Notes: generated by a model not told the origin, from the sequence alone. 63,503 nucleotides of DNA, filler included, from Patellaria atrata CBS 101060 (GCA_010093705.1; 5 parts of 4 records of this genome joined end to end with filler, not necessarily neighbours in it); one strand, 5' to 3'; numbered from the whole stretch's first letter, positions 8,499 to 44,769 are shown. Made by a program: numbers and translations.

Positions 8499-8604
8499 TT
8501 CTTTAGAGTGCGCGTAAGCTTAGCTGGTGTGGTAACCTTGGGGCGGTTCAGAATTAATCATAGTATATGTTTGTTTATATTTGATCTTCTTCTGCGGCTT
8601 ATAG

Positions 8605-13339: not shown

Positions 13340-13548
13340 TGTCAGACTGAAGAAGTTAGTAGTAACGGATAATCAAGTATATTTCCTACTGCCTTACGCT
13401 AGCTATTAGCACCATTCCTTTGACACAGCTGCCTAGTAGGTATCAACGCTGTTGCCTGCATGTTCTCATGTATTTAAACGCTCGTTAGAACAGTCATTAA
13501 ACAATCAAGCGATATCCCCCCATCGATTTGTGCATCACAAATCTGACA
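13340..13548 (+). repeat. 5' LTR (209 bp)
   Basis: TG...CA termini with an inverted repeat; followed directly by the PBS. Confidence 0.95.
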
Positions 13549-13561
13549 GTTATGAGCCCGG
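13549..13561 (+). promoter_or_regulatory. Primer-binding site GTTATGAGCCCGG (internal initiator tRNA-Met type, as in copia/Ty5)
   Basis: Lies directly 3' of the LTR. The same motif follows LTRs at 37609-37621 and 40096-40108 on the minus strand. Confidence 0.8.
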
Positions 13562-13707
13562 TTTGCCCTAGGTTCTAAAATCAGTTTATATCGGATATTT
13601 GTCTATCTTTTAGATCTTTGGTGTATCAAGTTCACCTTCTTTTGATCCTATCTTTGCTCAAATATCCTCCCTTTTTATCTGGTTTTCTGATACCAACCGC
13701 TACCACA

Positions 13708-16700: not shown

Positions 16701-18438
16701 AACTTCTAAACGTCGCCGTGGCCGAACGGACCATAACGCGCTATTTACCTCCTTTTTAGCCTCCCAAAAACGTGAAATCCAACCAACGAACCGGCTACAT
16801 AGAAGTCAGCTTCCCCCAGCACCAGGTGGTTGGAAGCAAGCTCTTAATCACCCTTTTAAGCAAGATTGGCTAACAGCAGCCACTCGGGAGTATACTGAAC
16901 TACAGCGTCGTGGCACGTTTACTGTTGAACGGAGATCCGATCTGCTAGAAGGAACTCAGATAGTTCCCCTGACTTGGGTTTGGACATACAAATACGACGA
17001 GGAGGGATTTCTAACCAAGTTCAAAGCGCGACTTTGCGTCAGAGGCGATTTGCAATACACAGATCTGGATACCTATGCTGCTACTCTAGCTATACGTACT
17101 ATGCGAGCTATACTATCGATTGCAGCTGCTTTTGGCCTAATAGCTCACCATTTAGATGCTGTAAACGCCTTTGTAAACAGCCCACTTGACGAAGAGGTAT
17201 ACTGCATCCCACCTAACGGATTTACAACCCCTGGATCCGTTCTTCACCTCAAACGAGCCCTATATGGTCTTAAAAGATCTCCTCTACTTTGGTGGAAGAC
17301 ACTATCTAGGTCCCTTGAAGATCTGGGTCTATCTGAAGTATCAGGTGTCAATTGCCTGTATACGAATGACTGGCTAACCGTATTTTTCTATGTGGACGAT
17401 ATAGTTTTACTTTGCTCACCATACTATTCTGAAGAACTAAAAGAGTTCAAATCCAAACTAATGGCTCAGTATCCGATGAAAGATCTTGGAGATCTTCAGT
17501 ACTTCCTAGGTATCCGTATCGTACGTGACCTAGACGCACGTAAGCTATGGCTCTGTCAAGATGCCTATCTTGAGAATATCTTCTCAAAATTCAAACTGAT
17601 CGAATTCGACGGAAAAGTTCCACGAACACCGCTTCCATCTGGTGTTTTAGAACGGTCCACAACTCAGGCATCTCCTTCTCAAATTCGCCTTTACCAGCAG
17701 TTAATTGGCTCAATTATTTGGCCAGCCTCAACAACAAGACCTGACGTAGCTAAAGCAGCTTCAGAACTGTCGAAATACCTCACCAATCCGTCGGAACGAC
17801 ATATCAAAGCGGCAAAACAAGCTATTTGTTACCTATACCATACTAGATTTTGCTCCATTGGGTATAGCAACGAGCCACAGGATAGCACGATCTTCGTAGT
17901 TGCCTCAGATGCATCATTTGCTGATGATACTATAGATCGCAAAAGTAGTCAGGGCTATCTATTTTCGTTATTTGGTGGACCAATTGATTGGAAAGCTTCA
18001 AAGCAAGATACGGTCACCACGTCAAGCACGGAAGCTGAACTGCTATCGCTCTCTTTAACAGCTAGAGAGCTGATCTCGTGGAAACGCCTTTTTGATCATA
18101 TTGATTTCGATCCAGAACAACAGATCTCAATTTTCTGCGACAATCGCCAAACTATACGGCTTCTTGAGGCTGATACGCCTCAACTCACAACTAAACTTCG
18201 ACACGTAGATATTCACCAACACTGGCTACGTCAAGAGGTCCAAAACGGTACCATTGCCGTCAACTGGAAGCCTACAGCTGAGATGCCAGCTGACGGATTC
18301 ACCAAATTGTTACCTCCACAGAAGCATCAACACTTCCTCCTACAGTTAGGAATGACGGATATCCAGCATCACGTCGAACAGCTCGATTCAAGAAAGAAGA
18401 CCCAAAACGGTTATACAGCACGAGTAGTCCCTCTCTAG
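13708..18438 (+). CDS. Copia gag-pol polyprotein (Gag, protease, integrase, RT, RNase H)
   Basis: Uninterrupted ORF with CLCGEKH knuckle, LLDGGSDVHVCN protease, WHKMLAHP...CETC, integrase core, YVDD and RNase H. The first in-frame ATG is at 13708. Confidence 0.95.
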   Translation: MSSSNTIKSTVVLNSSTDWNLWIGLIRGKAGTAWKYCDPNDASPPVLSAPDQLTDKDPAAVENHRILYREFEKAQTKLDNVSDFVFESVSTQHLVFIIRLNTLHERLVELKKRLQPDDRATYLDLQARIYRLRSTIKKSSVLDWLQRFETVYTECKTSNHPLYQGHMLEFELLEGLKKIDPQWATSCQKDLNRQIRSIPKLTSQPITQEVTPTRDTVKYVDDVYDLISEFTSYYRSVQAVGGNSGSGSSSTAFATFQGESNNPTANIDKKEKSKKSHTGDKRDPPTCLCGEKHLFYTCSYINPAVKKTNSYSDQTQREVEEKYQKSSDRVKYTIDNIRSIFKESSQGSKQQNDSKSSETSSKKVNLMATSLPNDLPFKFSASFLLDGGSDVHVCNNPDIFKIERVEPGLTLGMGFGSVPVEAIGSFEVPVDTPYGRDYITMNDAYLCPQFRTSLISQSRAQKRGVFHHARKGIFEDLDGNEICKIYLIDTLYVLHHVELDINQQRVAMVTRSAQPRPPISAPAEKWHKMLAHPGPETLEHLQANVTGAEVFGRGPTTVECETCALTKSTEIVSRRPRATLPATRPFERVAFDLIYLKGGYNGSKYVSHFYDRATGWHEAVSHTRKSQVSQICKYFVARIKARFDHTVVYFERDGESALTAEFYDLLASEGGISEPSAPGTQAQNGGAEASGRVLVVKARSLRIGANLPHDIWIEPINTAVYLANRTPQKRLNWKTPYEMVTGRKPDLSHLKVYGCKAYVLKKDIPKLQKLDPRAHIGYLVGYDSSNIFRIWVPSRKRVFSSRDVRFDENELYRPQAIDIGHILKESTEDIIDIIEIPAKLRAMALQEDFPAILDNDDDFSELGVAPKLVPTLKDTTKNGPIPSANSSAISAQRSPNPYLPSPRATPDGVDPQQQVATPLDQYHDFYDALDSAPEDPSHQLTQELAQDLARDTQDTQDLAQNEPSPSTSSNTTAHARSSRNTAPRANLISSDFSESNILTSKRRRGRTDHNALFTSFLASQKREIQPTNRLHRSQLPPAPGGWKQALNHPFKQDWLTAATREYTELQRRGTFTVERRSDLLEGTQIVPLTWVWTYKYDEEGFLTKFKARLCVRGDLQYTDLDTYAATLAIRTMRAILSIAAAFGLIAHHLDAVNAFVNSPLDEEVYCIPPNGFTTPGSVLHLKRALYGLKRSPLLWWKTLSRSLEDLGLSEVSGVNCLYTNDWLTVFFYVDDIVLLCSPYYSEELKEFKSKLMAQYPMKDLGDLQYFLGIRIVRDLDARKLWLCQDAYLENIFSKFKLIEFDGKVPRTPLPSGVLERSTTQASPSQIRLYQQLIGSIIWPASTTRPDVAKAASELSKYLTNPSERHIKAAKQAICYLYHTRFCSIGYSNEPQDSTIFVVASDASFADDTIDRKSSQGYLFSLFGGPIDWKASKQDTVTTSSTEAELLSLSLTARELISWKRLFDHIDFDPEQQISIFCDNRQTIRLLEADTPQLTTKLRHVDIHQHWLRQEVQNGTIAVNWKPTAEMPADGFTKLLPPQKHQHFLLQLGMTDIQHHVEQLDSRKKTQNGYTARVVPL

Positions 18439-18459
18439 GCCTCTCGAGCTGGAAGGGTG

Positions 18460-18554
18460 TGTCAGACTGAAGAAGTTAGTAGTAACGGATAATCAAGTAT
18501 ATTTCCTACTGCCTTACGCTAGCTATTAGCACCATTCCTTTGACACAGCTGCCT
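18460..18554 (+). repeat. 3' LTR, truncated by the assembly spacer
   Basis: Identical to 13340-13434. Confidence 0.95.
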
Positions 18555-18654
18555 NNNNNNNNNNNNNNNNNNNNNNNNNNNNNNNNNNNNNNNNNNNNTT
18601 AATTAATTAANNNNNNNNNNNNNNNNNNNNNNNNNNNNNNNNNNNNNNNNNNNN
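18555..18654. other. Artificial contig spacer
   Basis: 44 N + TTAATTAATTAA (stop codons in all six frames) + 44 N. Confidence 0.97.
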
Positions 18655-18761
18655 CCTTTACTGATTTGCAGCAAGTTTTTTAAATCAGTAATACCCCTGC
18701 TCTTCAGGTGCGCACGGTCCACATTTAAATCAGTTATACATTTACTGATTTAAGCATTGCA
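18655..18761 (-). mobile_element. Terminus of a putative DNA element inserted into the DUF3505 gene
   Basis: Inverted repeats TTACTGATTT/AAATCAGTAA and TTAAATCAGT...ACTGATTTAA, ending TAAGCATTGCA|GTTAGGG. Same architecture as the terminus at 19715-19826. Confidence 0.55.
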
Positions 18762-19424
18762 GTTAGGGATAAACCTATTCTTATCCGGTTCCACGATCGA
18801 GTATAAATTCTTCTTTATCTTCTTTAACTAGCTAGATATATTGGCGAATATTTCTTCTAGTTATTAGCTTATCTTAACTTCCTCTTCTTATATATCTCTT
18901 CCTACTATATCTATCTTCTTCTTCTCCTCCTAACTATTAACCTTAAATAGCTTTCCTAGCTTACCGGCTCCTATAAACTTTTGGTAGTGTATACCTTAAA
19001 TCTATGACTTTTCTCTATCTAGCTATAGACCGTCAGCTAGTCGTCCTCTCTACTTGCTAACCTATCTATATTTCTTGCGATAGTGGCTCTTCATATTTCT
19101 TATATCCCTATTAATATATCTACACTCCTTTAGTCCCTCTATTATTGCTTTTACTGTATATCTGAGCCTATCCTTATAGATTGCTAATCCTAGGATCGGA
19201 TCTAAACCTAACACTGGCTAGACCACCTAATCTTCTGTCATCGCAAATCCTTTAATGCCGGCCGTAAACTGGACCATCTCTTTCCTACTTCTTGCGGTCA
19301 AGTGCGCATGCCTTGCTGCTAGATATGTACTACACTGCGTCAGTAAACAGCCAATCCGACACTCTCTACAGATTATAATGCCGTATCTTGATGCATAGTC
19401 GAAAAGCTGGTTAAACTGATCCAT
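18762..19424 (-). pseudogene. DUF3505/OrsD-like N-terminus (type usually found on fungal RecQ-helicase-associated genes); RIP-damaged and truncated
   Basis: YGIIICRECRIGC...HAHL...DPILGLAIY...KECRY...MKSHYRKKY...GIHYQKF...RFIPN| with many TAG/TAA stops. Recognised by eye. Confidence 0.65.
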
Positions 19425-19714
19425 AATGATGATAACTCTAACTGATTTTCTTGCTAACTGCTCCGTAGAGGCATAATCGCTAGGAGAGAATACTTCTAGA
19501 GAGGCTTACTCTCCCCCTAGACTAGGAGATGGAGGTCCTTAGCAGTGCGCACGGATGGAAATTTGCCTTATCCAAAGAATTCTAACCTGATATGTTAACA
19601 TGATAGTCTAGCATCAAAAAACTAGCTAATAAACGAATCTAACTTTATTAGAATATTCATCTAGGTTAATTGCACCCTTCTATCGGTTTGCATCGCAATA
19701 TATCTGAAGATTTT

Positions 19715-19820: not shown

Positions 19821-20059
19821 GTTAGGCTACAATGGATGTGAGTTTTTGACCCATTTTTACGACAGATATTCGGGGTGGCACGAAGCCATAGCCCACCACT
19901 TGAGAGGCCAGACAGCCCAGATAGCTATGAACTTTATAGCACGTATTCGGGCCGTTTTCGGGCATGTTGTCGTCTACTTTGAGAGAGACGGAGAGACAGC
20001 TCTAGCTGGAGCCTTTGCTAAAAAGCTTCAGGCATCAGGCGGAGTAGCAGAGTCATCAG
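19821..20059 (+). mobile_element. Copia integrase fragment
   Basis: LGYNGCEFLTHFYDRYSGWHEA...VVYFERDGETAL is homologous to the integrase of the 13708 ORF (GYNGSKYVSHFYDRATGWHEA...VVYFERDGESAL). Confidence 0.9.
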
Positions 20060-20513
20060 TGTGAGATTGTGGATAACTGAATGTAGTCACTTGATTCTTC
20101 GTACAACTACGGATTCTATCTAGTGTTTATATAATGATACACAGCGAATCCGACCTCCTGTTGCTCTTGGTCGGTATTGAATCCGAAGCACAACTTTTCA
20201 TGGTCCTACTTGGCCCACCACGCGATAAAGTTCCTGTTTGTCTTCTCTGTTCCCGTCACTATACCAACTGGGTTCTAGAGAGAAATATTCGCATGTTCCC
20301 AGTCCCCGTTTTGCTAGTGCTCCCGGTTTCAATGGGGATAAAAGACTCGACAAGAGTGTTCTGGTTCTATTGCTAGGAACACCTTTTCGGATGAAGGGGA
20401 GAATAGATAGTAGTTTGGCCTAGTCACCTAGAGAACGCCTGCGAGGGATTTCTAATATACTTGCTTCAATATGGGCAAACTCAAACGTGACCACTGCGAT
20501 AACGAGTCTAACA
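20060..20513 (-). repeat. Probable solo Copia LTR (about 454 bp) without TSD
   Basis: The first ~77 bp (plus strand) match the LTR at 53270 (TGTGAGATTGTGG.TAACTGAATGTAGTC...ATAATGA). The putative other end is TCTAACA at 20507-20513. The flanks differ (ATCAG vs CCGTC). Confidence 0.6.
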
Positions 20514-22925
20514 CCGTCGGTAAAAGAAAAGGCGAGGAGCACATCGCGGTTGCATTGCGAGGGCAATTCTTTGCCGCAGAACAAGTGCTAGCTGTTGCCG
20601 TGCGAAAGCCTGTTGCTGTAAAATGGCACGTTGCTGGAGCCCGGTTTCCCACTCGTTCCACGTTAATGGAGACGGCTGAGGGGGCGGCTGTACTATATAA
20701 TTCCGGTTGATGATGGGTCGGTTGGCCTTTCTGTATGGAATTACGGAGATCTCGGTGAACTCCCAGCGTGTCTTAAGGTGGGGTTTAGACATGAGATAGA
20801 CCATATACTCGCCGTAGATGACGGCGACGTAGTACTCGGCCGTAGCCCTTCTGCGACTGTCTGCTTTGGGGATGAGAATACCCTCGATGCCGGCACGGGC
20901 GAGTCGCGCGCAGACCGATTTCTTCCAGTCGCTGTACGCATACGTCATCCTTAGATGGCCCATCTGCGTGAGCATTGTGGTAGTCGGAGTGCTGATCCGT
21001 GCCGGCCGCGACCCCATGCCCGAGACAAGGTACAGCCGGCCCGGCTTCTTCAAGCGTGTCTTCAGCGCATTATTCGAAAGACCAGAAAGGCGGAATTTCA
21101 TTTGTAGCTTGGTCCACCGCGCCTGCTTGACCTTTTGCGGTTTAGCACCCACCCAGGAGATCAACTTGTCCATCGGACGACGATAGTTCCAGTCTTTCAA
21201 CGGTACCACGCCGTAGTCATGATATTTGAACCTCTGTATAGCCCACCGGTCGAGCTGATAAGGGCCGGAGGTGCGCTGGCTGGGCCACTTATCCCTGACC
21301 GTCTGGGCGGCTGCTCCAATCGTCAGAATCCAGCGACTGGTAGGTGGCTTGAAAGTCGAGCCGGAATTGATCACGAAGACGCCGTCACCAAGCACATTCC
21401 AGCGACCCTGGATGCGATCCCACTGGATAAAGAGCACAAAGCGGCGGTCGCCGGTTGTTCTGCCGCCGATTGGGGTGAGATACGTCCCGACTTGGGCTTT
21501 GCCGACTCTGCCAACGTAGACGACCTGGACGTTGCTTGTTCCGGCTGTGAGTCCAGGTGCGTGATAATAGAGACGCCCACGGTTGGTCTTGAGTGATATC
21601 TTGGCAATGCCACGTCTGGAATTGATGATACGGAAGTTGGACCATGGCCCGAAGGAAAACATGCGGGCGTTGATGATATGCGGGTGCGAATGCGTTACAA
21701 AGAGCATGTCAAACCGATCGATGTAATCGTCAAACGCGTCGACATACCGGCCCACCCATCTAGAAGGGCCCGCATTTGAAGTATAAACCGGTTGGCCGTT
21801 GGCCAGGGTGTCCGGGCACCGAGGAAGAATGCGGGATATCGGGTCCCGGGGATACCTACTCCCACCAACGCCGTTGATAGTAAACCACGATGGTCCGATT
21901 TTGCTGATGGCTGCTGTCTTCCGTGCGAGATCGCGAAACAGGTCCTTATAGGTTCGCACATCCCGGAAAGGGTCGATTTGAAGGCCGAAGCAGAGCATGA
22001 CGCTGTAGACAATGTCGACTGGGTGCCCGGACGTGCGCAGAAACATGCTCCTCCATATTCCGGCCGCACTTATCAGCCGGTTCGGGTGTATGGCGGTACG
22101 GAGCGCATGTCTTGGGACGTACTTCCTGGTGGGCGCAGCATAGAGGCCATCCAGAACCACGACATTACTATAGGGTGCACTGAAGTTATTGTCAGCCATG
22201 TCAAGAAGGTCCCTTAGACGGATGAGTCTTTTGTTCGGCTCCCCCGTTACGATCATCAGCGGATACCGGTTGCCAGCTGTGTCCCGAACACTGGTGGAGC
22301 CCGGCGGACCTGGCCAGAGCACGTAGACCCAGGTCTGTCGCCAGTTGACGAAAGACTCCTGGAGGGTCCACGCTCTATCCATCCATCCAGTAGGGGTGCC
22401 GACCGACTGTACCCGCGGAATGCCTCCAATCATGACTACCACGGATGCCGCGTTTTCGTAGATATCCCGCATAATACAGATCTGAAATGGGACCTCAGAG
22501 CCGCTGGCGGCTTTCTGGTCTATGCAGAGGAAGTCGAGCCAGATCCAGCCGGCGCCGAGCTGCGCGGCCGCATTTGCAATTTGCACGAGACCTACCCAGC
22601 TGATATCCTTGTAGTATGGGGGACTTTTGATCTTGATCCTTAGTCTCCGAATCATCATTCCACCTGTATAAGCGGCGGAGTCGACCTCAGCGCCGTATCC
22701 CCAAACGTGGGAAATAGCGATATAGGGCGGACTAATGGCCTGCAGGTCGCTAGAGAGAGTTTTACTAGGGAACCTGATGGATTTCCATTCATAGAGGTTG
22801 ACCTTGGGGTTCGACCTCAGGAGGTCTGCAACTTTGAAAGCTCGGAAAGCACCGTCTGTACGTCCACTTGGATAGACCCAAGTCCGTGGTGGTGTCTCCG
22901 ACTGAGAAGCCACGAATCGGACCAT
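20508..22925 (-). CDS. HET-domain protein with a long unrecognised basic/aromatic C-terminal region (about 805 aa, no intron needed)
   Basis: HET motifs PYIAISHVWG, WIWLDFLCIDQ, QICIMRDIYENAASVVV, WMDRAWTLQE. ATG at 22925. Confidence 0.9.
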   Translation of the reverse strand: MVRFVASQSETPPRTWVYPSGRTDGAFRAFKVADLLRSNPKVNLYEWKSIRFPSKTLSSDLQAISPPYIAISHVWGYGAEVDSAAYTGGMMIRRLRIKIKSPPYYKDISWVGLVQIANAAAQLGAGWIWLDFLCIDQKAASGSEVPFQICIMRDIYENAASVVVMIGGIPRVQSVGTPTGWMDRAWTLQESFVNWRQTWVYVLWPGPPGSTSVRDTAGNRYPLMIVTGEPNKRLIRLRDLLDMADNNFSAPYSNVVVLDGLYAAPTRKYVPRHALRTAIHPNRLISAAGIWRSMFLRTSGHPVDIVYSVMLCFGLQIDPFRDVRTYKDLFRDLARKTAAISKIGPSWFTINGVGGSRYPRDPISRILPRCPDTLANGQPVYTSNAGPSRWVGRYVDAFDDYIDRFDMLFVTHSHPHIINARMFSFGPWSNFRIINSRRGIAKISLKTNRGRLYYHAPGLTAGTSNVQVVYVGRVGKAQVGTYLTPIGGRTTGDRRFVLFIQWDRIQGRWNVLGDGVFVINSGSTFKPPTSRWILTIGAAAQTVRDKWPSQRTSGPYQLDRWAIQRFKYHDYGVVPLKDWNYRRPMDKLISWVGAKPQKVKQARWTKLQMKFRLSGLSNNALKTRLKKPGRLYLVSGMGSRPARISTPTTTMLTQMGHLRMTYAYSDWKKSVCARLARAGIEGILIPKADSRRRATAEYYVAVIYGEYMVYLMSKPHLKTRWEFTEISVIPYRKANRPIINRNYIVQPPPQPSPLTWNEWETGLQQRAILQQQAFARQQLALVLRQRIALAMQPRCAPRLFFYRRC

Positions 22926-24147
22926 ACTTTCCAACGGTGTCTCACAGTTCGGTTCGATCTAATAGTCAAAAGCGATACGCAAAATAAAGACACGATTGTT
23001 GTGAGACGAGAAGGATTGTGTGAACCTGAGTCGCATTGAAAGAGATACGAATGGAAGCGAGAAACGGACGCTCGACACTCTACTAGAACAGTGGTGTTAC
23101 GGCCAGCAACAACAGCTTCGTGGAAGAAGTCAACGATGGGCTCGTGATGGGCAAAGCGGTGGGAACCAGCAGTGCAGTTATGTACGAGGAAAGTATCTGT
23201 CCTGGCGGAGCCTCCGTATTAGATTATGAAAGGAAGTAATCCCTTTGGTCAGATAAGGGATGGGGGAGCAGAGGGAGCATAACAGAAAACAGGGTTTATA
23301 AGGGAAGGGGTACCTAAGGATACTCTTTCTTCATGTATTTGGAAACCTCCTGGTGCTTATATTAGTTTAGATTTGATTTGAATCTTAATTTTGACTGAAA
23401 GTTTGAAGTCTTTCAAGTTGCTATGACCCAAAGTGCAAAGGTCACCACGAATCCCTATCACAAACCGAGCCTTTAAGGATGTAATGAGAAACCTTGCAGG
23501 AACTAGACTTATCCAATTCCGTCTTAGCGAGAATAGACTCCACTCCTAAACCCCTTTAGCGGGTGCATGGGTAGTTAGAGGGACGCAAGCCACCCCTACT
23601 TTAGCCCATCGGTGGCTGGCAGGGTTCAGAGGACGTTATTTGACCTCTCGGAAAGCATTTTGGAAATAATAACCGAAAACACCGAGGACAAGACTGAGGG
23701 AGAAAAGTTGTGGCATTTTTCTTCAGAATAACGCAAGCTGAACATCCCCTGTTTGCTGACCTTATCGGGTCGAGGATAACAGGCTTAGAACCCAAAAGAG
23801 GAAATCCCCGCATCGACGCTGCTCTGCAGTAATATTGCAGTCTAATGACGCCTATCACCTTCAAGTCCCTGTTGATGCAGATATATTGTGTGACCTTTTT
23901 TTCTTTTCCCTTTAAAGAAAAGGCAACCAACGGGAAGAGTGAAAGAATTGGGAGTATGCCGTATATAAAGCATGTTCGTCCAAGGCCCGCTCCGGTGAAT
24001 AGCCCTTGCGGAAATTTCTGTCAGCAACACCCGGATAAGCTGAGAGCTCGCTGCTGGTACCTCCTGGTTTAAGAGACTTGAGGACATACCTGGTGGGAAT
24101 CAAACCGTTTGTAATTTTTTTTCTTTTTTGATATTCGAACAGCCACA

Positions 24148-25729
24148 ATGAATGCAGAAACGCTCCCTTTTGATAATCGTCTGTACCCTGCTTTAAAAGC
24201 GGTCTGGGTCAATATAGAGATACTTTTTAAATGTATGGTGCCATTCACCGGCCTGAAGGTCACGGCTTGCTCTCAAAGAAGTTGGCTGATGTATCGTGGC
24301 AAGACTACCCCTTTATACTCGTAATTCTTCCTGCGTTTTGGAGTGCTTCCACACTGAATCAACAACAATCTTTCGGGATCCTTTCTCTACTCGGCATTGT
24401 TTATTTTGGCAGTTTTTTGAGGCCAGTGAACCCTTCCACTCAAAGTGATGCTGGTACTGTTGCTACTACCCCCGATGGGCAAACCCTATTCACAGGCCTT
24501 CTCAATGCGCTTCAGGGACTGGCGGGACCTCTAGAAACCTGCGTGAAAGGTGAGTGACATTTTCTCGGGCGGACTCAGATCATGTCCCCAAAGTCACCTC
24601 TCCAAGGCTGCCGTTGCTGATTTAATCTGCAGTCAGTTTTCTCGTCGCTCTAGCCCTCAGCACCCCCTACAATAACCAACCCGCATCGGATTCCTTGATA
24701 TTCCAGCCTTGGACGTACGTCGTCCTCGCCATCGCACTTACCGTCATCGGAATCATCGCCCCGCCGCGAATATTTTCCGGCGCCGCGCGCTTTGCCTACT
24801 TGCAACACAACGCGGATTTCAGGCGGCACTACGAGTTACTTCTCACGGGTTGGGCATACTTTGCCTTCGCACTGCCCACCGCCTTTCCGGCCCTCTTCAC
24901 TTTCGTTTCGGTGGGCATCTTGTTCCTCAGCGTCCGGGCAGCCCTCGTGGTCCACCGCCACTACAGCACGATGGCCCGGGAAGTCGTCGATGCAGCAGCG
25001 GAGATTGCCGACAAGGCCCAAACGGGAGTCCAGCACGGTCGGGGGCGGTTACTTGTCGGCGAAGAATACGAGCGGCAGCTTCTCGGTATAGTAGCTGCCT
25101 CGCGGCGTGACGCCTTGGTTGCACTGTCGGTGCGAGCAACTGACTTCTTCGAGTGCGCGACGGCAGCGTGGGCCGCTATTGGGGTGGTGGTGACACCGGC
25201 CGAGGACGCGACCAAGAGGGCTCGCGATCTCGCTGATGCAGCCCAAGACGTGATCGATGTAGAGAAGCCCGAAGCAGATGAAGAGAAAATGGAGGAGCTT
25301 GCCCAATTTTTACTCCAGAGGGCGAACGACGCGGCTGCCGAGGGGGATGCCGTGCTGGGAAAGTTGCGCTCCGCACAGGAGGCTGTCCGGACGAGCCAGC
25401 GCGCCGAGGGTCAGGCGAGGACGGCGCGACAGGTTACTATGAAGAACGCGAGCGAGGCGGCCAAAGCTGCCAGTGATGTTGGCCAGAAATTGAAAGGGTG
25501 CTCGGAGCGGCTCTATCAGGCTACGCGGAATGCCGAAAAAGCAGTTCGGCTTGTGACCAGGGCTTCGGAGACGGCCGTTGAGGGTGATATTGACGCTGCA
25601 AAGGGCATTCTGGTGGCTGCGCGCGACGCCGCCAATGAGGTGGAGGCTGTAAGAGCTGTCATCAACTCCGCCGTAGATGGTAGCTATGTGATTTTGCTTG
25701 GCTTTTTGCAGAAGCTACCACTATCATAG
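24148..25729 (+). CDS. Multi-pass membrane protein with Ala-rich helical/coiled-coil C-terminus (paralog A); introns 24233-24303 and 24550-24632; about 475 aa
   Basis: Both GT-AG introns have branch motifs and restore one frame. Hydrophobic segments precede an Ala/Glu-rich helical tail. Homologous to the 29267-30514 gene. Confidence 0.8.
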
Positions 25730-25815
25730 GTGCGAGTTGAGAGAGATAATGTCGAACAAGTAAATATCCTGAGTGCTAAGATGATTGATTATGCTCTGAA
25801 TAATAGTGCATAGCG

Positions 25816-26580
25816 CTAATTACCGATCGCTTCTTCTTCTTCAGCGACTCTGATTTCGCTATCATCATCGTTTGGCTTTGAATCACTGCCCAAGGAGCGT
25901 ACTGACTTCCTCTTAGTCTTCCTCCTAGGGGATGATGAAGACATGCCTATTTTGACCGGTGTCTCTCTCGAACCCTTGCCTTCTACCAACCACGGACGTA
26001 CGTCCCGGTCAACGTATGCCTTGGAAATACCTATCCGCAGCGCTTCTCGGAGCCCTTCCTCCATCCGGAGAATGTATTCGTCCCAAGGCATACCGGGACT
26101 CGTATACTTATTACTTAAATAAACGAGAGCTGTTGCCGGCGTGCCTCTTGGCCACGATTCAGAATCCTGAAGAACAGAGGGTTGACGATGACGGCGATAC
26201 CGAACGATGTTGGCGACGTCCCTCCCCAGCAGGCTTGGCGGAGCCTGAAAGAGCTCAATCTCGACATCAACCTTCTGGTAAGCTGTCGGTACACCCTCAG
26301 CAAGGTCTAGCAACCCCTCGTCGGAGCCTACCAGGCGGTAGCACACCCCATCGACATAGGCAGTCGGGTCGGCGACGACATTGGCAAAGCCGCGCTCGTT
26401 GATCTGGAATCGGTGATTGCGTAGACGTGCGCGACCAATGAAGCGGCTCTGCGGGCAGCGCCGGGCCATCTGCGAGAAGGAGAGGTTGCTACCATATGCA
26501 AAGTAGAGTGCTTGTTTCTCATTTCCTCCTCTTTCCGCCCCTTCTGCTCGACGCTTTTGGCTAGACGGAAAGGAGAGCAT
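25816..26580 (-). CDS. Gamma-glutamyl cyclotransferase (GGCT/AIG2-like) protein
   Basis: YFAYGSNL, MARRCP, GFANVV, VDGVCYRL, LDLAEGV (candidate catalytic Glu). Confidence 0.9.
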   Translation of the reverse strand: MLSFPSSQKRRAEGAERGGNEKQALYFAYGSNLSFSQMARRCPQSRFIGRARLRNHRFQINERGFANVVADPTAYVDGVCYRLVGSDEGLLDLAEGVPTAYQKVDVEIELFQAPPSLLGRDVANIVRYRRHRQPSVLQDSESWPRGTPATALVYLSNKYTSPGMPWDEYILRMEEGLREALRIGISKAYVDRDVRPWLVEGKGSRETPVKIGMSSSSPRRKTKRKSVRSLGSDSKPNDDDSEIRVAEEEEAIGN

Positions 26581-27306
26581 TGTGCGGGTTCCAAAGTGGT
26601 AAAAACAAGGGAGTTTGAAAGCGCACTTACGCCACGTTATCGGAGAAACAATCTGGAGATAAATGTCAGCACGTACGTACGGCTAATTGATACTTCATCG
26701 TCGTCCCGATCCGGCGATTGTCGATCATGCATCTCCTGGTGGTGCATTATACAGTAGTCGCATGCAGTAAGCCTGCATTTTCGCGATGCTACAGCACATA
26801 ACGTACGTGTACCATTCCGGCGCCGGTATGGACACTATACATACAGTAGTCAAACGTGCTCTCAACCCATTGGGCAACAAGTTTATTAGAACACGAGCAG
26901 CCAGCTTCGCGTACATTCAGCTCCAAGACGTCTGCAAACCTCCTTGTCGAGCAGCGGGAAGCAGTGCTAGCACAAGCCTAGTGCTTATGCGTGGAGCAGT
27001 TGGATTAAGGGTTGAAGCTCACAGTTCGAAACAGCCTGCCCTTCTTTCAACACAAAAAAATTTTGAGCCATACAAGCAATATTTTGAGGTTCAAATTTTC
27101 ATATCAGTATTTCTCATGTTAAGAGGGTTTCTAAAGTGCTCTTTGAATGTTGGTATACCTCAATTTCGGTCTTATAATTAGTTTAGAGAACAAAACGGCT
27201 TTTTCTACGTCTGCACGATTGATGATTCTAACTCTTGAACAATAGATCCTATTCTACCACTGGGCGCCTCTTCGTTGCCGCTACTGTAGATATCTGCAAA
27301 ATTACG

Positions 27307-28324
27307 ATGGCCCCTAAATTGGGCTTTGGCTGTGAATTGGAGATGTCGGCGGAGCCTAGAGTGTGGAAAAATCTATCAAGAGCGGAAAAGATTAAGAGAC
27401 TCGTACGAGAGCTCCGAAATCACCATCTCAGCGCTAAACCACTCAGTGGCTCACCCTCGAAGTACGACCGGTGGTGGATCACTGACGACGTGTCGATCAG
27501 TCTGGCCAATTTGAGTCCATATGCCAGTATGTCGAGGTTCCCTAGACGAGTCTGAAAGTTTTACTGATGTCACCAAAACCAGTCAGAATGGAATGCGTAT
27601 CACCCGTTACAAAATTTGATAGTAACTGGCAGGACGACATGCAGGAATTCTGGAGCGTACTGACTGGAGCATTCAAGGTAACACGCAACGACAGCTGCGG
27701 AACTCATGTCCACATCGCGCCATGGAAGAAAAATTTTACTATCAAACAGGCGCAGACCGTCGCCTTCGCGTGTTGCTTATATGAGCCCTATGTTGTATCG
27801 TGCCTGCCGGATAATCGGCGCACTAGCCGTTACTGCCAGCGAAACTCTCGAGTCGAAGGTCTCTTGCTGAAGACTTTGTTCGAGAGAAAGTCCATGTCAA
27901 AGATTGCGGCCGCCATCAAGAGAAAGAAAGATTTCAAGAAGCTTAGAGACTTCATGCAAGGTGACAACCGGTACGTCCTGTGGAACTTTAAAAACCTCCC
28001 CAACAAGCGAAAAAGCACGATTGAGTTCCGCGGCGGTCAGCACGCGCAGGATGCAGATAAGGCGGAATGCTGGATCACTTTTGCGGTCGTCTTTGTTATG
28101 ATGGCTCTCAAAGAGGTAAGTCAACGCATGATATCTATCCTATCCCGACTGACGAGGACTAGAACCTGCTGTTCTCGAGATCAACTTATAGGATGGCTGA
28201 TAACGATAGTTATGACGAGGTGCAGCGGTTTTGGAAGAGGTTTACGGATTTCGCCAGGACCCTAGACGTGGGCGATCATTTTCCATTCGTGTTTAAGAAG
28301 ATGAGCGAGAGGTGGCGGGAGTGA
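27307..28324 (+). CDS. Putative amidoligase (Amidoligase_2, COOH-NH2 ligase fold); introns 27527-27582 and 28116-28162; about 304 aa
   Basis: FGCELE, WWITDDVSI, MECVSP, SCGTHVH, RYVLWNF, STIEFR. Splicing of the two canonical introns gives an open frame. Confidence 0.9.
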
Positions 28325-28484
28325 CCACAGGAAAGAGACGAGGCAACATGAAATGTACAGAGGTGCTCCCAGGGGTTACGTATACAAGTCTTCGTAAATG
28401 CAGTTTTCAGGTCAATTACTCACCTAGTTAAGACTAAGATTGTGAGCAAAGCACTACTTGAGCTGCCTATTCTTCCAACACTTC

Positions 28485-28950
28485 CTTAAAAGGGAGGTTT
28501 AAATCCATATACCTAGCGGGCATAGCCAGCTTTATACATGACGTTTTTTCAAGAGCTCTACTGACATCCATAACAAACGAGAGTAATTTCCATCCAGGAT
28601 ATCCGTTCATGGCTCCTTCTAGTGGTAATCTCAATTCCGGATAGTGATACGCACGATCTTATTCTTCTGAGCCTGAGTAAGCAGCTCAAGCCTTCTTCGG
28701 CCAGGTTCATTTTGTAGAGGGTAGGGCCCGTAGTAGGTAGAGCTCTGCCTAATTCTGTACCCTCTACATAGGTCTTTGATATGGTGCCCTGGTTTACGTT
28801 GAAGGTATCTGCTGTTAAACCCCGTAAGGCTTTCCGTTATATAACTTCGCTAATTAAGCAAAGCGCTCTACCACGGATAAATCTTTTCTATTTGTCTTGT
28901 TTGGACGTAACTTTCCTCTTCTTGTATTTCCTGTACTTTTGGTCATCAAT
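28485..28950 (-). mobile_element. Degenerate Tc1/mariner transposase N-terminal (HTH) relic
   Basis: Broken frames give RKDLSVVER...FNVNQGTISK...PGRRRLELLT...VMYKAGYAR*VYGFKPP. Confidence 0.5.
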
Positions 28951-29266
28951 TTGAATTACTATATAGTGATTTTTGGGCTTAGTAGTCGTATAGTCACGGC
29001 ATGTAGAAAGAGTAGTATTGATGTTGACAGGTGACGAAAGGTCAGCCATTCCTCACTGGATACTTATCCCCGTACCGGTGCTGAACATGTTTGTAAACAA
29101 AGGGAAAGAGTGTGCATTACATGCCAGGTTTTAGGGTTACCAAGGTCACCGTTAAAATTTTACTTAAATAATCTTCCATTTTCTCCTTCACCTGAACACA
29201 ATTTCACAATCCAAAATACATCAAAAGTGTCAAGCGTAAGTCTCTTATCATCTCTACCCAGGGTCA

Positions 29267-30514
29267 TCATCCCAGGTGAGTTTTCCATAGCGCCTCGCGC
29301 ACCCTCTGCTTGGCGGACAGAAGACGGGCTTCCGCATCGACAGTCTTTCTAGCTTCCTTGCCTGCGTCTGCTACCTGGGCGGAGGCGGCGGCGAAGTCCC
29401 CTCCTTCGGCGAACAGCTTTGCCTGGTCGGCAATCCATTTCACCTTCTCATATCCATGGGCAACCACGGCCGCATCGGCAGGCATACTGTGGACAAGGGT
29501 TACTAGATCTCTGACGTTCTTTGTGACATTCTGAGCGTTCAGCACCTCATCTGACCGGCCCTTAAGATACAGCTTCGTGGCATCCTGTGACCTTTGCACT
29601 TGGGCCTGTGCTTCCCTGGCATGATTGACTATCTGCTCGGAAATGTTAAGAGCGGACTGAGCTGCTACGGTGAGCATGTCCGCTGTGGAGCTGCCATTGT
29701 CGTCTTCATTAAGATCAGCATCCTGGCATGCTTCTGCTTCTTCCACCATCTTCTTGGCCGCCTGTCTTGCACTCTCCAAGGGCTGTGTAATCTGCCCAAG
29801 AGAGGACCACGAGGTAGCAGCTACGTCAAAGAAGTCGATGGCTTTGAGGGAATCCATCAACCTTGAGTCCCGTCGGGCTGTTGACGCTATAGCTAGGGCT
29901 TGTTTTTCGAATTCATTGGCTTCTTCCATGTGTTTACTGGCTGACTGGGCAGCCAGGGCGGCGCGGTAGCAATACTCTTCCGCTTTTTTGGTGATATTGC
30001 GGGCTCCTTCACGATATCTAAAGAGAATGTACTGCCACGCCACTGGTAGCACCGCAATTGACCAAATACGAAGCATGGGAAAGAAGATCAAAGAGATCAC
30101 AATCCCGTTCATCGACCAACCGGGGAGGTGCTGACTCAACGATTGCATCCATTGGTTGCCCTCGAGGTAAGCCCATCGGATCGGCCCCGACGAGTTGCGC
30201 GTTGAGGAGATGAAGCCGACAACCGTCAGTGAAGTAAGCAACGCAACTACAGACCAGAGCTCAGGAGGGTATTGGGACATGGAGCCAGCGCCCCAGCCAA
30301 ACCAGCCGTTCCATCCCCCAATGAAAGGGAGTAAGGGAAGAAGAAAGTCTAACAAGGTTCTATGTGAGATAGAGGATAAAGAGAAGGATCATTCGTAAGA
30401 CTCACATTGATGTTGCTCCAAGAAGCGAAATATGCTCTGTGTAGCCGAGAGAGCGTCTAGAAATGTCGGAGGAGTTGGCTGCGCCGTGGTAGGGGGAACA
30501 GCACCAGAGGCCAT
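29267..30514 (-). CDS. Multi-pass membrane protein with Ala-rich helical C-terminus (paralog B); intron 30349-30405; about 396 aa
   Basis: ACCATGG start and a GTGAGT...CTCAC...TAG intron. EFEKQALAIASTARRDSRLMDSLKAIDFFDVAATSWSSLG aligns with paralog A EYERQLLGIVAASRRDALVALSVRATDFFECATAAWAAIG. Confidence 0.8.
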
Positions 30515-31142
30515 GGTCTCCTTTTTCGATAGTTGTTGCACTTAACAGAATCGTAGTTGGTATTTTTGCGAGAGACACTTGTAATATATTAAAACGCTGA
30601 AGGCTACTTTCGTCGCTCTCATCCAAACCATTCAGGATGTGGTAAACTTGGACGCCAGGGTTATGCTATTCTACATCCCCATGCATTATCTAAATCGCTC
30701 ACTGAGGCTATCTTAGGCTAGCACCAAGTCTATTGCATGCTGAACGATGTGAACACGGGGGCCTTTCCCTGGTTAGTACAGATAATAGTAACGGAGAAGT
30801 ATTAGGTTACTGCAGGTCAGCTCATGTATGTCGTGTAACAAGGAGCTAGAGTAGTTTTGAAATATTGGTGTTCGGGTACTTGGTGCCGTCTGGTATCAGC
30901 TAGCCACTGTCATAGCTCAACATCAGTTGAAAGCTGAAAGGTATATTGCCATATGTACATGAAGCTTAAACTTAAGAAAAGAAAATGTTGAGACAGCCCC
31001 TAACTATGCTGTTCTACTAAAGTACAGTATGACTAAGCCGCTGAATCATCCAAGGCACTTAGTTATACCTATCGGGTCTAACCCGTGACAGTGGTTTCGA
31101 AATGGGATAAATCAAAGAGCCCGGAGGGGGAAAAGCCATGGT

Positions 31143-40179: not shown

Positions 40180-40821
40180 TGTGGACTGTAGGGCTATCAC
40201 TAGACCTTCCATCTCATCACTCTGGCCATCAATTGCTCTACCATCTTGAGGCTGCATTGTCTGCAACAATCAGGAATGGTTTTGCAACGACTTCTTGATT
40301 TAAATGGTATGCGTTTCAGCTGTAAAGCAGGTAATAAAAGTTTTTGTCAGAGATACTTTTGTGTTAGAGATCTGTTTTAATACCGTTTGACACAACGTGT
40401 CAAGCTAACGTTCCATACCACTATTTCCACTAGTCAGCATCACATTTACCCGATGGTAAGCTCCACCATATAAGGTAACTTAACACATCATGCAGCTTAC
40501 CAATAAACTCTGTTTTTGTCGGCGTGCTACTTGGAAAATAAGATAAGAAACGCTCTATCATAATATTCGTATTGCTTCTAGCGACTTAATTAAAGCGGAG
40601 TGTGCCTAATGAATACAACCGGCTTCATCGGTACTAGACCACGGAAGCTAGGCCCGTTTAACGCCTTCGCGTACACTGCCTCGACCGCTGACTTCACAAC
40701 CCACCCCCAGCCATTATAATCCATCAACCGCTTCTGTTGTCCCTCACAATTCGTAATCGCTATCTTTACCCCGGGCCGTTTGGTTCTCCTGCCGTCCCGT
40801 GCTAGAATCGATGTTATAGCG

Positions 40822-43800
40822 ATGCGACTTCTTCACTTTAATCATTCTGGAGGACTAATCTTGACGGACTTCGGCAGGAAGAGCATCCCGCCATATGCTA
40901 TTCTTTCACACAGATGGCGAGATGACGAGGTTCTCTTCGAAGATCTAGGAAGCGACACCTATAAAGAGAAGGATGGTTTTCGAAAGATTAAGTTCTGCGC
41001 TGAACGGGCGGCCCAGGATCAGCTCCAGTACTTCTGGATCGACACATGTTGCATTGATAAATGGAACCTCCGTGAGCGCTCGAAAGCGATCAACTCGATG
41101 TTTCGTTGGTATAGAAATGCAACAAAATGCTACGTATTTCTGTCGGATGTTTCGGTATCTACTGCGGCGGAGATACCCCAACGAAGTACCTGGGAGGCAT
41201 CCTTCCGGAAAAGCGAATGGTTTACTCGAGGTTGGACACTTCAAGAACTTATTGCCCCAGTATCGGTCGAGTTCTTTTCCAGTGAAGGACTGCGGATAGG
41301 CGATAAAATATCTCTTAAACAGCTAGTATGTGAGGTTACTGGCGTTCCACTTAAGGCGTTATCGGGTTGTCCCTTAGACGAATTCACTGTATCTAAGCGA
41401 ATGGAATGGGCCAAACATCGCAAAACAACTGAAGAAGAAGACAAAATATACTGCCTTCTTGGAATTCTCGATATCTCCATGCCTACCTCCTATGGCGAGG
41501 GAAAGGAGAAAGCATTAAGAAGACTCCAGATGGAGGTGGAAGCAGCTACTAGCGCACCATCTATCATTCCGTTTTCCCGAAACGATCATTTCGTGGGTCG
41601 AGAATCACAGCTTGCGGAACTGGAAGCAAAGCTCCTTAGAGACAAGCAAACTACAATATCAGCGATAGTAGGACCCAGAGGGATAGGCAAATCACAGCTA
41701 GCGCTTGAGCTTGCATATAAAATAAGACAAAGGAACAAGAACTGCTCTATTTTCTGGATTGATGCAAGCGATATAGATAGTCTCTATCAATCGTATATAA
41801 GTATTGCCCAAAAGCTCGATGTTCCAGGGTGGGACGATGAGAATGCAGACATCAAGCAGTTGGTGAAATTTCAGCTAAGTAAAAAGGATGCAAAGCAGTG
41901 TTTGCTAATTTTTGATAACACGGAGGATATAACCCTAGGGTCCGGCGGGTTCTCCACGGCACGAGCTACTCACTTACGCGACTACCTACCACAGTCGGAA
42001 CTATGTTCTATCATCTTCACAACAATTAACAGTGACACAGCCAAGAGTTTATCATCGCAAAATATTGTAGAGTTAGGGGAAATGACACCGGATACGGCCC
42101 AAAGGATGTTAGAAAACTATCTAAATACTCCGGTTTCAAGAAGTGAGCAGCAAGAGGCAAAGCTTTTACTACAAGAGCTATTGTATCTCCCCCTAGCAAT
42201 TGTCCAAGCAGCAGCGTATATTAATACTAGAAACGTTACGTTACAGAAGTACCGATCACAATTAGTCAGGCGAAAGAAAGAAGCTCTCGAGCGTGATAGC
42301 GAATTATCTAAGGATAAGCTACAGGAGTACGGTATAAAAAGTTCTATAGCTACTACACTACTTATCTCGATGGACCAGATCCACCGTAGTGATACGCTAG
42401 CAGCAGACTATCTATTCCTTACCGCCTGCGTAGACCGAAAAGACATCCCGCTGGATTTTCTAGAAGCATCGTCTCCTCGTGAAAGGGAAGATGCGATAAA
42501 AGTTCTCAGCAGCTACGCGCTTATTTTAAGGCGGCCTGCCGAATCTGCACTCGATCTTCACCAACTAGTGCATGGCGCTCTACGGGAGTGGCTTCGAAAG
42601 CAGGAGAGGCTGGACCAATGGACCCGAAATGCTATTAAACAGCTACTCAGGGTGTTCCCAGATCCTTATCATGGTAATAGAAGTAAGTGGAGACGATTAC
42701 TTCCGCATGCTAAGTACGCTTTATCACATAGTCCCGTTGAACAAGAGGGCGGGAATAGATTAACCTTGACATGGAAGTATGCTATGACGCTATATAGTGA
42801 TGGACGGTACAACGAGTCTGAAGAGTTATTTATGCAAGTGATGGAGACGAGGAAGAGGGTGCTTGGGGACGAGCATCCAGACACGCTGACTAGCATGGCC
42901 AACCTGGCTTCGACGTACAGGAATCAGGGGCGGTGGAAGGAAGCCGAAGAGCTGGAGGTGCAAGTGATGGAGACGAGCAAGAGGGTGCTTGGGGATGAGC
43001 ATCCAAACACGCTAATCGGCATGGGCAACCTGGCGTCGACGTATAGGTATCAGGGTGGGTGGAAGGAAGCCGAAGAGCTGGAGGTGCGAGTGATGGAGAC
43101 GAGCAAGAGGATGCGTGGGGACGAGCATCCAAACACGCTGACCAGCATGGCCAACCTAGCTTCGACGTACAGGAGTCAGGGGCGGTGGAAGGAAGCCGAA
43201 GAGCTAGAGGTGCAAGTGATGGAGACGAGGAAGAGGGTGCTTGGGGACGAGCATCCAGACACGCTGACTAGCATGGCTAACCTGGCGTCGACGTACAGGA
43301 ATCAGGGGCGGTGGAAGGAAGCCGAAGAGCTGGAGGTGCAAGTCATGGAGACGAGCAAGAGGGTGCTTGGGGATGAGCATCCAAACACGCTGACCAGCAT
43401 GACCAACCTGGCGTCGACGTTTTGGGATCAGGGATGGTGGAAGGAAGCCGAAGAACTGGACGTGCAAGTGATGGAGACGAGGAAGAGGGTTCTTGGGGAC
43501 GAGCATCCAGACATGCTGGCTAGCATGGCTAACCTGGCGTCGACGTACAGGAATCAAGGGCGGTGGAAGGAAGCCGAAGATCTGGAGGTGCAAGTGATGG
43601 AGACGAGCAAGAGGGTGCTTGGGGACGAGCATCCAAACACGCTGATCGCCATGGCAAACCTGGCGTCGACGTACAGGAATCAGGGGCGTTGGAAGGAAGC
43701 CGAAGATTTGGAGGTGCAAGTGATAGAGACGAGGAAGAGGGTGCTTGGGGACGAGCATCCAGACACGCTGACCAGTATGGACAACCTGGCGTCGACGTTT

Positions 43801-44769
43801 TGGAATGAGGGGCGGTGGAAGGAAGCTGAAGAGCTGGAGGTGCAAGTGATGGAGACGAGGAAGAGGGTGCTTGGGCACGAACATCCAAATACACTGATCA
43901 GCATGGCCAACCTGGCGTCGACATACAGGAATCAGGGGCGGTGGAAGGAAGCCGAAGACCTAGACGTGCAAGTGATAGAGACGAGCAAGAGGGTGCTTGG
44001 GGACGAACATCCAAACACGCTGACCAGCATGACCAACCTGGCTTCGACGTACAGGAATCAGGGGCGGTGGAAGGAATCCGAAGAGCTGGAGGTGCAAGTG
44101 ATGGAGACGAAGAAGAGGGTGCTTGGGGACGAGCATCCAAACACGCTGACCAGCATGACCAACCTAGCTTCGACGTACAGGAATCAGGGGCGGTGGAAGG
44201 AAGCCGAAGATCTGGAGGTGCAAGTCATGAAGACGAGCAAGAGGGTGCTTGGGGACGAGCATCTAAACACGCTGACCAGCATGGCCAATCTGGCGTCGAC
44301 GTTTTGGAATCAGGGGCGGTGGAAGGAAGCTGAAGAGCTGGAGGTGCAAGTGATGGAGACGAGCAAAAGAGTGCTTGGGAATGAGCATCCAAACACGCTG
44401 ACCAGCATGGCCAACCTGGCGTCGACGTACAGGAATCAGGGGCGGTGGAAGGAAGCTGAAGATCTGGAGGTGCGAGTGGTGGAGACGAGCAAAAGGATGC
44501 GTGGGGACGAGCATCCAAACACGCTGACTAGCATGGCCAACCTGGCTTCGACGTACAGGAATCAGGGGCGGTGGAAGGAAGCCGAAGAACTGGAGGTGCA
44601 AGTGATGGAGACGATGAAGAGGGTGCTGGGGGACGAGCATCCAAACACGCTGACTAGCATGGCCAACCTGGCGTCGACGTACAGAAATCAGGGGCGGTGG
44701 AAGGAAGCCGAAGAGCTGGAGGTGCAAGTGATGGAGACGAGGAAGGTGGCGCTTGGGGACGAGCATCCA
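40822..44769 (+). CDS. Fungal NLR: HET domain - NB-ARC - TPR repeats (3' end truncated by the spacer)
   Basis: HET: PYAILSHRW, YFWIDTCCIDK, INSMFRWY, WFTRGWTLQEL. NOD: FVGRE, P-loop GPRGIGKS, Walker B LLIFDN, LPLAIVQAAAYI. Followed by 42-aa TPR repeats. Confidence 0.95.
42838..44769 (+). repeat. High-identity 126-bp tandem TPR repeats, 15 complete units plus a partial 16th
   Basis: Consensus VMETxKRVLGDEHPNTLTSMANLASTYRNQGRWKEAEELEVQ. Confidence 0.97.

Follow-up and report, generated by a model that had tools for sequence, protein, structure and literature searches.

Five intact genes lie together at positions 20508-30514 of a 63,503-nucleotide stretch of DNA (the window) from Patellaria atrata CBS 101060, a fungus of the Dothideomycetes, in the order HET-domain gene (HET-long, -), membrane-protein gene A (+), gamma-glutamyl cyclotransferase gene (GGACT, -), amidoligase gene (+) and membrane-protein gene B (-). 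The cluster exists as described and its genes are intact, yet its make-up suggests two conserved pairs and not a proven five-gene system. The reading that we favour, and to which we would give about an even chance, is that two separately conserved two-gene units stand side by side, HET-long with protein A (Unit 1) and the amidoligase with the cyclotransferase (Unit 2), accompanied by a second, anciently diverged membrane paralogue, protein B. Each pair is found adjacent again in another fungal class, and no conserved linkage between the two pairs was observed. Judged from sequence, what is new here is the HET protein paired with a new kind of membrane protein, while the ligase/AIG2 cassette is known and is met here in fungi.

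The order, strands, open frames and canonical splice sites of the five genes, as given in a preliminary description of the window, were confirmed by the open reading frames (ORFs), by the GT..AG introns and by gene models identical to database proteins (Table 1). Indeed, the spliced models of A, the amidoligase and B reproduce the database proteins P0001, P0002 and P0132, both introns of the amidoligase gene (27527-27582 and 28116-28162) being GT..AG, and the translation of A equals the NCBI protein of the same strain. The HET, cyclotransferase (GGCT) and amidoligase domain assignments of that description likewise held when checked with hidden Markov models, all three giving Pfam matches above the curated gathering cut-offs and the enzyme motifs being kept. 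No further copy of any of the five families occurs in the window. The sole ORF of at least 60 aa scanned in the interval between HET-long and A (23601-24020, -) has no Pfam match, and PADLOC anti-phage profiles and NCBIfam prokaryotic families gave 0 matches for all five proteins.

HET domains carry three conserved sequence blocks, SH.WG, W.D..CIDQ and RAWT.QE, which appear in the HET-long translation as ISHVWGY, WLDFLCIDQ and DRAWTLQE. The domain itself was found at residues 68-168 (Pfam HET, PF06985, 42.6 bits against a cut-off of 22.5, E 1e-10). In the C-terminal ~ 600 residues no known Pfam domain, lectin included, was detected. A lead from the protein atlas assigning DUF8212 to this part (0.90) received no confirmation from Pfam and was dropped; otherwise the atlas returned unnamed Ascomycota clusters only.

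Unit 1 is found again in a metagenome-assembled genome (MAG) of Geoglossum simile (Geoglossomycetes), a fungus of a different class from P. atrata. There, one annotated protein of 1,314 aa, P0134 (gene M1840_004997, KAI9768167.1), holds both an A-type membrane part (residues 65-473) and a HET-long part (residues 505-1238, with Pfam HET at 583-684). The latter aligns with the whole of the window HET-long at 46% identity over 778 aa and keeps the three HET blocks, and the N-terminal part aligns with protein A at 39% identity over 418 aa. Furthermore, P0134 is the closest relative of A among the aligned members of its family, the 32 others aligning at 18-35%, and the two group together in the family tree (UFBoot 95 / SH-aLRT 89). 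HET-long and A are divergent in P. atrata while their relatives lie on the same strand in Geoglossum; the relative orientation differs and the adjacency has therefore survived a rearrangement. Given that conserved synteny of HET loci between species is otherwise scarce (PMC4540973), the Geoglossum adjacency is notable. The coherence that the preliminary description saw in the module was thus upheld for HET-long and A by P0134, but it did not extend to both membrane genes, since the Geoglossum B-type gene (M1840_001160) is on another contig than the A-type/HET-long gene.

The tails of the two HET proteins are not conserved. Residues 1238-1314 of P0134 form a K/R/E-rich repeat (REKQRKL three times) with three terminal cysteines, and the tail of HET-long is glutamine-rich with a single terminal cysteine. 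A complex prediction for HET-long 1-740 together with protein A 215-471 returned a score of 0.00, without a usable model.

Proteins A and B had been described as paralogues, and they are true, anciently diverged ones, with 27% identity over 257 aa (E 3e-26). Neither has a Pfam match, and HeLo, HELL and SesA (PF14479, PF17111 and PF17107) gave no Pfam match at E <= 0.01 for A, B and 12 other family members. A profile search with A and B collected 105 representative clusters at E <= 0.001, 81 at <= 1e-10 and 47 at <= 1e-30. Among the 27 family clusters looked up, 14 had an organism name and all 14 belong, by our reading, to Pezizomycotina, with the genera Geoglossum, Diplogelasinospora, Talaromyces, Orbilia, Arthrobotrys, Aspergillus, Polyplosphaeria, Byssothecium, Amniculicola, Fusarium/Neocosmospora, Parahypoxylon and Botrytis. 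They form an uncatalogued, predicted membrane family of Pezizomycotina, absent from the domain libraries searched. Protein A, used in a word-based search of 8000 candidates, retrieved no protein but itself, and sequence searches of the PDB gave chance helical matches only, which were discarded. In a maximum-likelihood tree of the family, for which 39 of 49 candidate rows were used and ten were dropped for length, A and B fall into separate deep groups, A within a clade of 26 rows (100/99) and B together with a Diplogelasinospora grovesii protein (100/98), the basal split being weak (76/90).

Common to the family are two to four helices that form a hydrophobic core, the conserved loop GP.RF.Y, and the motifs RRD and TDFFD...W opening a long helical region. 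Protein A has about four hydrophobic helices followed by a 250-aa all-helical bundle. Its AlphaFold2 model, computed from a 33-sequence alignment (pLDDT 78, pTM 0.59), places helices at 132-147 and 166-190 and then at 192-272, 276-315, 323-393, 396-423 and 426-467, so that an 81-residue helix would leave the membrane and be followed by four more long helices in an elongated bundle. Since the arginines of protein A cluster in the loop 148-170 and just past the last hydrophobic helix, the conserved loop and the bundle probably face the cytosol. Foldseek gave no match to this model at E <= 0.001. With VIA-align the highest scores went to three-helix-bundle receptors of trypanosomes (Z 14.4 and 12.6), then to chemoreceptor and BAR domains, in a Z range that the program flags as a common arrangement for helical bundles. 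A specific fold homology for A was set aside, these matches being read as those of a generic elongated helical bundle.

More distant members of the family were met in metagenomes, where a pattern scan gave 109 matches that reduced to 7 loci with family members, 4 of them with flanking context. In 3 of these 4, the membrane-family gene adjoins a WD40-repeat gene, an arrangement that we count for Unit 1. The family profile matches the proteins of these three loci in 12, 10 and 6 segments, their lengths being 1,084, 943 and 624 residues respectively. Because a variable repeat number stands beside a possible gene of the NOD-like receptor (NLR) type, the loci look like immune-type loci.

By analogy with het-B (Bh/Bp) or het-c/pin-c, we read Unit 1 as a cell-death pair made up of a HET protein and a linked partner. 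The latter would be anchored in the membrane by 2-4 helices, with its conserved loop and its elongated 250-residue helical bundle on the cytosolic side. The C-terminal ~ 600 residues of HET-long would read the state or the variant of this membrane partner and, when the partner is altered or foreign, would free the N-terminal TIR-like HET death domain.

The roles could also be reversed, with HET-long as the sensor or enzyme and the membrane protein as a downstream executioner damaging the membrane, by TIR-type signalling or in likeness to HeLo and pore-forming proteins, which we consider quite unlikely. The membrane-anchored hairpins do weakly resemble soluble alpha-pore-forming toxins and translocators (VIA-align IpaB Z 10.5, XaxAB Z 9.2; Foldseek AhlB at E 0.1-0.15), but such scores fall within the common helical-bundle range, the top of which is held by the trypanosome receptors, and the protein would already be membrane-embedded and not a soluble pre-pore. 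Relatives with tandemly multiplied hairpins beside WD40 genes would suit an executioner, and some het genes encode membrane-targeting coiled-coil domains (PMC12881547). However, A and B show no Pfam match to HeLo, HELL or SesA, and in known HET systems the HET domain alone suffices for death (PMC12881547). The reading of the membrane protein as the sensed partner of HET-long is the one retained for Unit 1.

Both enzymes of Unit 2 are clear members of their families. The amidoligase matches Pfam PF12224 at 61.6 bits against a cut-off of 22 (E 1.3e-16) and phrog_2443 at E 2.5e-13, and the cyclotransferase matches Pfam PF06094 at 32 bits against a cut-off of 22.8 (E 2e-7) and phrog_2520 at E 3.4e-15. 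Across 10 aligned sequences the amidoligase keeps invariant G-H...P and TxEFRGG motifs (G113, H115, P120, E221-F222-R223-G224-G225 and others), and FGxExE is present in all 5 aligned sequences having the N-terminus. Across 15 aligned sequences the cyclotransferase conserves YFAYGSNL (26-33), QINERG.ANV and LD..EG, with the E95 of LD..EG and G30, S31, N32 and L33 invariant and Y29 in at least 90%; the YGS.L motif and the conserved glutamate are presumably catalytic. Given that these invariant motifs are kept, both enzymes are probably active. From what is known of the families, the ligase would form, in an ATP-dependent reaction, a gamma-glutamyl-type amide on a small amine or a protein, and the cyclotransferase would take such an amide off as 5-oxoproline.

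The closest named relatives of the amidoligase are Orbilia oligospora TWF106_000742 (52% identity) and TWF192_003666, and in both of these strains the ligase and cyclotransferase tags are adjacent (TWF106_000742/000743 and TWF192_003666/003665). A GAT-II/Ntn-type peptidase or a second ligase is a frequent but not obligatory companion of the bacterial and phage Amidoligase_2 + AIG2 cassette; no Pfam family of a GAT-II/Ntn peptidase, an ATP-grasp partner or a second ligase was found in the scanned window ORFs. Amidoligase_2 neighbourhoods with an AIG2-family cyclotransferase or a GAT-II-like peptidase were reportedly predicted by Iyer et al. in 2009 (Mol Biosyst 5:1636). In two Clostridium clostridioforme prophages, moreover, phrog_2443 and phrog_2520 are listed at a distance of two ORFs (PMC11318856). 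By its profile matches and its recurrence the window pair is the known ligase/AIG2 cassette in fungal form, and the pairing of the two genes, on which the preliminary description built, is not due to chance. The cyclotransferase subfamily, with 134 matches among 1,757 candidates, is much commoner than the amidoligase subfamily, with 10 among 85 candidates, hence most of its members work without this ligase. With patterns drawn from the amidoligase alignment, viral contigs gave no relative of the fungal subfamily, and genome contigs, scanned for prokaryotic relatives, gave no close one, only one marginal 22-residue match.

The preliminary description had taken the five genes as one module, and the examination of linkage in other genomes did not support this. 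Indeed, by locus tags or contig identity, membrane-family and enzyme genes are far apart in 6 genomes of 4 lineages, a count that covers the membrane-family members among the matches listed, so that other paralogues may lie beside the enzymes. The membrane and enzyme tags are respectively 009398 and 000742 in O. oligospora TWF106, 000964 and 001452 in O. oligospora TWF191, 006960 and 011376 in Arthrobotrys megalospora, and 01469800 and 01247900 in Fusarium sp. LHS14.1, while in F. vanettenii and Diplogelasinospora grovesii the two kinds of gene are on different contigs. Hence the five-gene unit is not conserved.

The scope of this count is one of several points that weigh against the reading of two separate units. 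Outside the window, the adjacency of HET-long and its partner comes from one genome only, a MAG, in which the P0134 'fusion' may be an annotation that merges two tandem genes, as suggested by the methionine at residue 502 that follows a 28-residue linker and precedes the HET-long part; in either case the two are neighbours. In none of the 4 metagenome loci with context does a HET, amidoligase or GGACT gene stand beside the membrane-family gene, which counts against the HET pairing, and the HET mechanism itself is not settled (PMC12881547). Furthermore, each of the 3 named lineages that have the amidoligase subfamily (P. atrata, O. oligospora and the Fusarium solani complex) has membrane-family genes as well, a weak hint that the two co-occur, and both ancient membrane clades bracket the enzyme pair within 5 kb, which is odd for unrelated units.

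These last two observations would also fit a single five-gene system, with the amidoligase as writer and the cyclotransferase as eraser of a gamma-glutamyl mark on the membrane proteins or on HET-long, a mark that would gate HET-dependent death or a toxin-antidote relation. Such a modification-gated system finds no support in the comparison of genomes and we regard it as unlikely. Its packing is tight and symmetric, with A (+) and the cyclotransferase (-) convergent, their stop codons 86 bp apart, followed by the amidoligase (+) and B (-); the enzymes are flanked by two members of a rare family that diverged long ago; the five genes are all intact, and both enzymes retain their invariant motifs; and the membrane loop and bundle, if cytosolic as predicted, would be within reach of soluble enzymes. 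On the other hand, the enzyme pair is unlinked to the detected membrane-family genes in the 6 genomes above, Geoglossum has HET-long and A with B not nearby, and the GGACT subfamily, far commoner than that of the amidoligase, is not tied to the ligase. The membrane-family alignment shows no invariant lysine or other obvious acceptor site. Promoter words (k-mers) common to the three upstream regions of the cluster were not above shuffled controls, and the five proteins together with the NLR encoded further along the window (Table 1) have no common peptide motif beyond three 5-mers.

A broader picture would make the membrane family a recurrent cognate partner, as guardee or trigger, of death proteins (HET-long in P. 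atrata and Geoglossum, receptors of the WD40 type in the metagenome loci), with the phage-type pair writing and erasing a gamma-glutamyl mark on both clades in P. atrata and the loss or gain of that mark triggering HET death. We hold this to be decidedly improbable. If true, a glutamyl mark on the membrane family would give the Amidoligase_2/AIG2 cassette, an orphan since 2009, both its first substrate and its first physiological role, and the fungal copy does sit between candidate targets. No literature linking amidoligase or AIG2 with HET or incompatibility was found beyond incidental co-mentions. The preliminary description knew of no fungal system of this composition; none was found in the literature searched, but each half has a close known analogue.

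The favoured reading of two adjoining units has also to be weighed against the surroundings of the cluster. Given its four joins and its N runs, the window is a scaffold or a concatenation, and from the joins at 18555 and 44770 it follows that the contiguous block with the cluster is 18655-44769. Two DNA runs, probably of the assembly's own sample, gave contigs that bridge 20360-30984 and 22398-30997 with 0-2 differing letters and without joints at the introns; the runs, which come from one sample, show no variants. The summed contig depth in these runs is ~ 290-430 inside the cluster compared to 5,800-18,000 at 20000-20366 and 30643-31000, i.e. 20- to 50-fold higher, and since depth jumps at either edge, multi-copy sequence bounds the 10.6-kb cluster on both sides. 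These two flanks are not repeats of each other, and no direct or inverted repeat of at least 40 nt bounding the cluster was found within 17-34 kb. No tRNA gene was found in the whole window and no Rfam family in 18655-44769.

The five genes had been described as intact amid damage by repeat-induced point mutation (RIP), a contrast that holds only in part. Their own composite RIP indices are all negative (-0.16 to -0.88), but so, or close to zero, are nearly all values from 1 to 45 kb, the maximum being +0.21 at 18001-19500. Clear signatures occur only at 45-52.5 kb, past the join at 44770-44869, with weaker positive values at 58.5-63.5 kb. In the 4.5-kb block at 45001-49500 the GC content is 0.09-0.15 and the composite RIP index exceeds 1, which marks a heavily RIP-mutated repeat; from there weaker positive values go on to 52.5 kb. 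The low-GC blocks at 52-53 kb and 54.5-55.2 kb, like the apparent long ORFs there, are produced by N runs and are no sign of RIP.

Besides the cluster, its contiguous block holds, 10 kb away, an NLR gene in which 16 or more TPR_10 repeats were counted. The HET domain of this NLR is distant from that of HET-long (24% identity over 136 residues). DUF3723, ferric reductase and NLR together in the window match the marker set of a 'degraded Starship' as defined in PMC9156397, namely three accessory markers and no captain. No DUF3435 captain was found among the scanned ORFs of at least 130 aa in this window with four joins, outside which an element could extend. As DUF3723 and the ferric reductase lie past joins, the physical linkage of these markers to the cluster is uncertain.

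On this background the five genes might have no functional relation at all, being accessory genes brought together by chance in a transposon-rich and possibly Starship-derived region, with the Geoglossum adjacency due to descent or to transfer of a segment; we find this improbable. The Copia and Gypsy elements, the DUF3723 and ferric-reductase fragments and the NLR, making at least three Starship markers without a captain (PMC9156397), the high-depth flanks, and the fact that each pair is backed by a single outside genome would all accord with it, and tight clustering in transposon-rich fungal regions need not mean a single system. However, HET-long and A differ in orientation between P. atrata and Geoglossum, so that their adjacency outlived a rearrangement, the pairing of ligase and AIG2 is met in prophages and again in two fungal classes, the five frames are intact without RIP signature, and the Starship markers stand beyond scaffold joins.

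Table 1. Features of the P. atrata window, and the metagenome genes compared with them (L004, L005 and L007 are metagenome loci).
Feature	Position	Strand	Remarks
HET-long gene	20508..22925	-	single exon, 805 aa
Intergenic, divergent, HET-long / membrane gene A	22926..24230	.	1.3 kb
Membrane protein A ('TM-coil' A-type)	24231..25729	+	exons 24231-24549, 24633-25729; GT..AG intron 24550-24632; 471 aa, P0001
GGACT/AIG2-like gamma-glutamyl cyclotransferase gene	25816..26580	-	254 aa
Intergenic, divergent, cyclotransferase / amidoligase	26581..27306	.	726 bp
Amidoligase_2 gene	27307..28324	+	exons 27307-27526, 27583-28115, 28163-28324; 304 aa, P0002
Membrane protein B ('TM-coil' B-type)	29267..30514	-	exons 30514-30406, 30348-29267; GT..AG intron 30405-30349; 396 aa, P0132
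HET / NB-ARC / TPR NOD-like receptor gene	40720..44769	+	Pfam HET, NB-ARC/NACHT, TPR_10/TPR_12; 3' end cut by the join at 44770
OrsD-type ORF fragment	19227-19505	-	PF12013, E 1e-7; just outside the cluster; probably remnant of another gene or element
Ferric-reductase fragment (FAD_binding_8)	6019-6573	-	beyond a join from the cluster
DUF3723 fragment	10626-11282	-	beyond a join from the cluster
Two Copia-type elements and one Gypsy-type element	3-2393, 13579-18438, 59187-62439	+ (all three)	beyond joins
100-base joins	18555-18654, 44770-44869, 56615-56714, 62384-62483		form N44-TTAATTAATTAA-N44, TTAATTAATTAA being a six-frame stop word
Plain N runs	2522-2621, 51941-52770, 54477-55206, 61911-62010		100-830 bases
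Metagenome membrane-family genes	L004:5813-9064, L005:4622-7450, L007:3080-4951	+	tandemly multiplied helical hairpin units
Metagenome WD40 genes	L004:9225-10928, L005:7583-8884, L007:5126-6655	-	tail to tail with the membrane gene; run off the contig

Triggering of HET domains outside NLRs is known for very few partners, and a HET protein with a membrane partner kept across two classes makes a new pair that can be tested. In addition, a protein family of about 100 clusters, unlisted in domain libraries, is brought to notice. As for the Amidoligase_2/AIG2 cassette, which has had no known substrate since its prediction, the search for its product becomes more tractable with an intron-bearing copy in a saprobe that can be cultured.

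Among described systems, Unit 1 is most readily set beside het-B of Podospora anserina, where Bh (HET + lectin fold) and the adjacent Bp (PII-like) remain clustered in 28 of 31 taxa with varying orientation, and where the HET protein acts, through its C-terminal recognition domain, on the neighbouring gene's product (PMC10890737). At that locus, as in Unit 1, the adjacency of the HET gene and its partner is kept across taxa while their relative orientation is variable; here the partner is adjacent as one half of a divergent pair in the window and both relatives are joined in P0134 (one outside genome). The two differ in that the partner here would be a polytopic membrane protein with a helical bundle whereas Bp is a PII-like trimer, and in that neither a lectin nor any other Pfam domain was detected in the C-terminal part of HET-long. 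In Neurospora crassa, het-c encodes a plasma-membrane protein and adjoins the HET gene pin-c (PMC2988816), and het-c/pin-c and het-6/un-24 resemble Unit 1 in that a HET-domain gene is closely linked to a membrane-protein gene; in those systems a non-allelic interaction leads to cell death. The pin-c/het-c linkage is confined to Neurospora/Sordaria, whereas the HET-long/A pair spans two classes.

Unit 2 shares with the bacterial and phage Amidoligase_2 + AIG2 cassette the same two families as neighbours and, with the prophage pair of PMC11318856, the same PHROGs (2443/2520). It differs in being eukaryotic, with introns in the amidoligase gene and divergent transcription of the pair, and in having no GAT-II/Ntn peptidase or ATP-grasp partner in the scanned window ORFs. 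Finally, the window as a whole resembles Starships through its DUF3723, FRE-type ferric reductase and HET-NLR genes. Starships have a DUF3435 captain at one end and target-site duplications; here no such captain was found among the scanned ORFs of at least 130 aa, and no bounding repeats within 17-34 kb.

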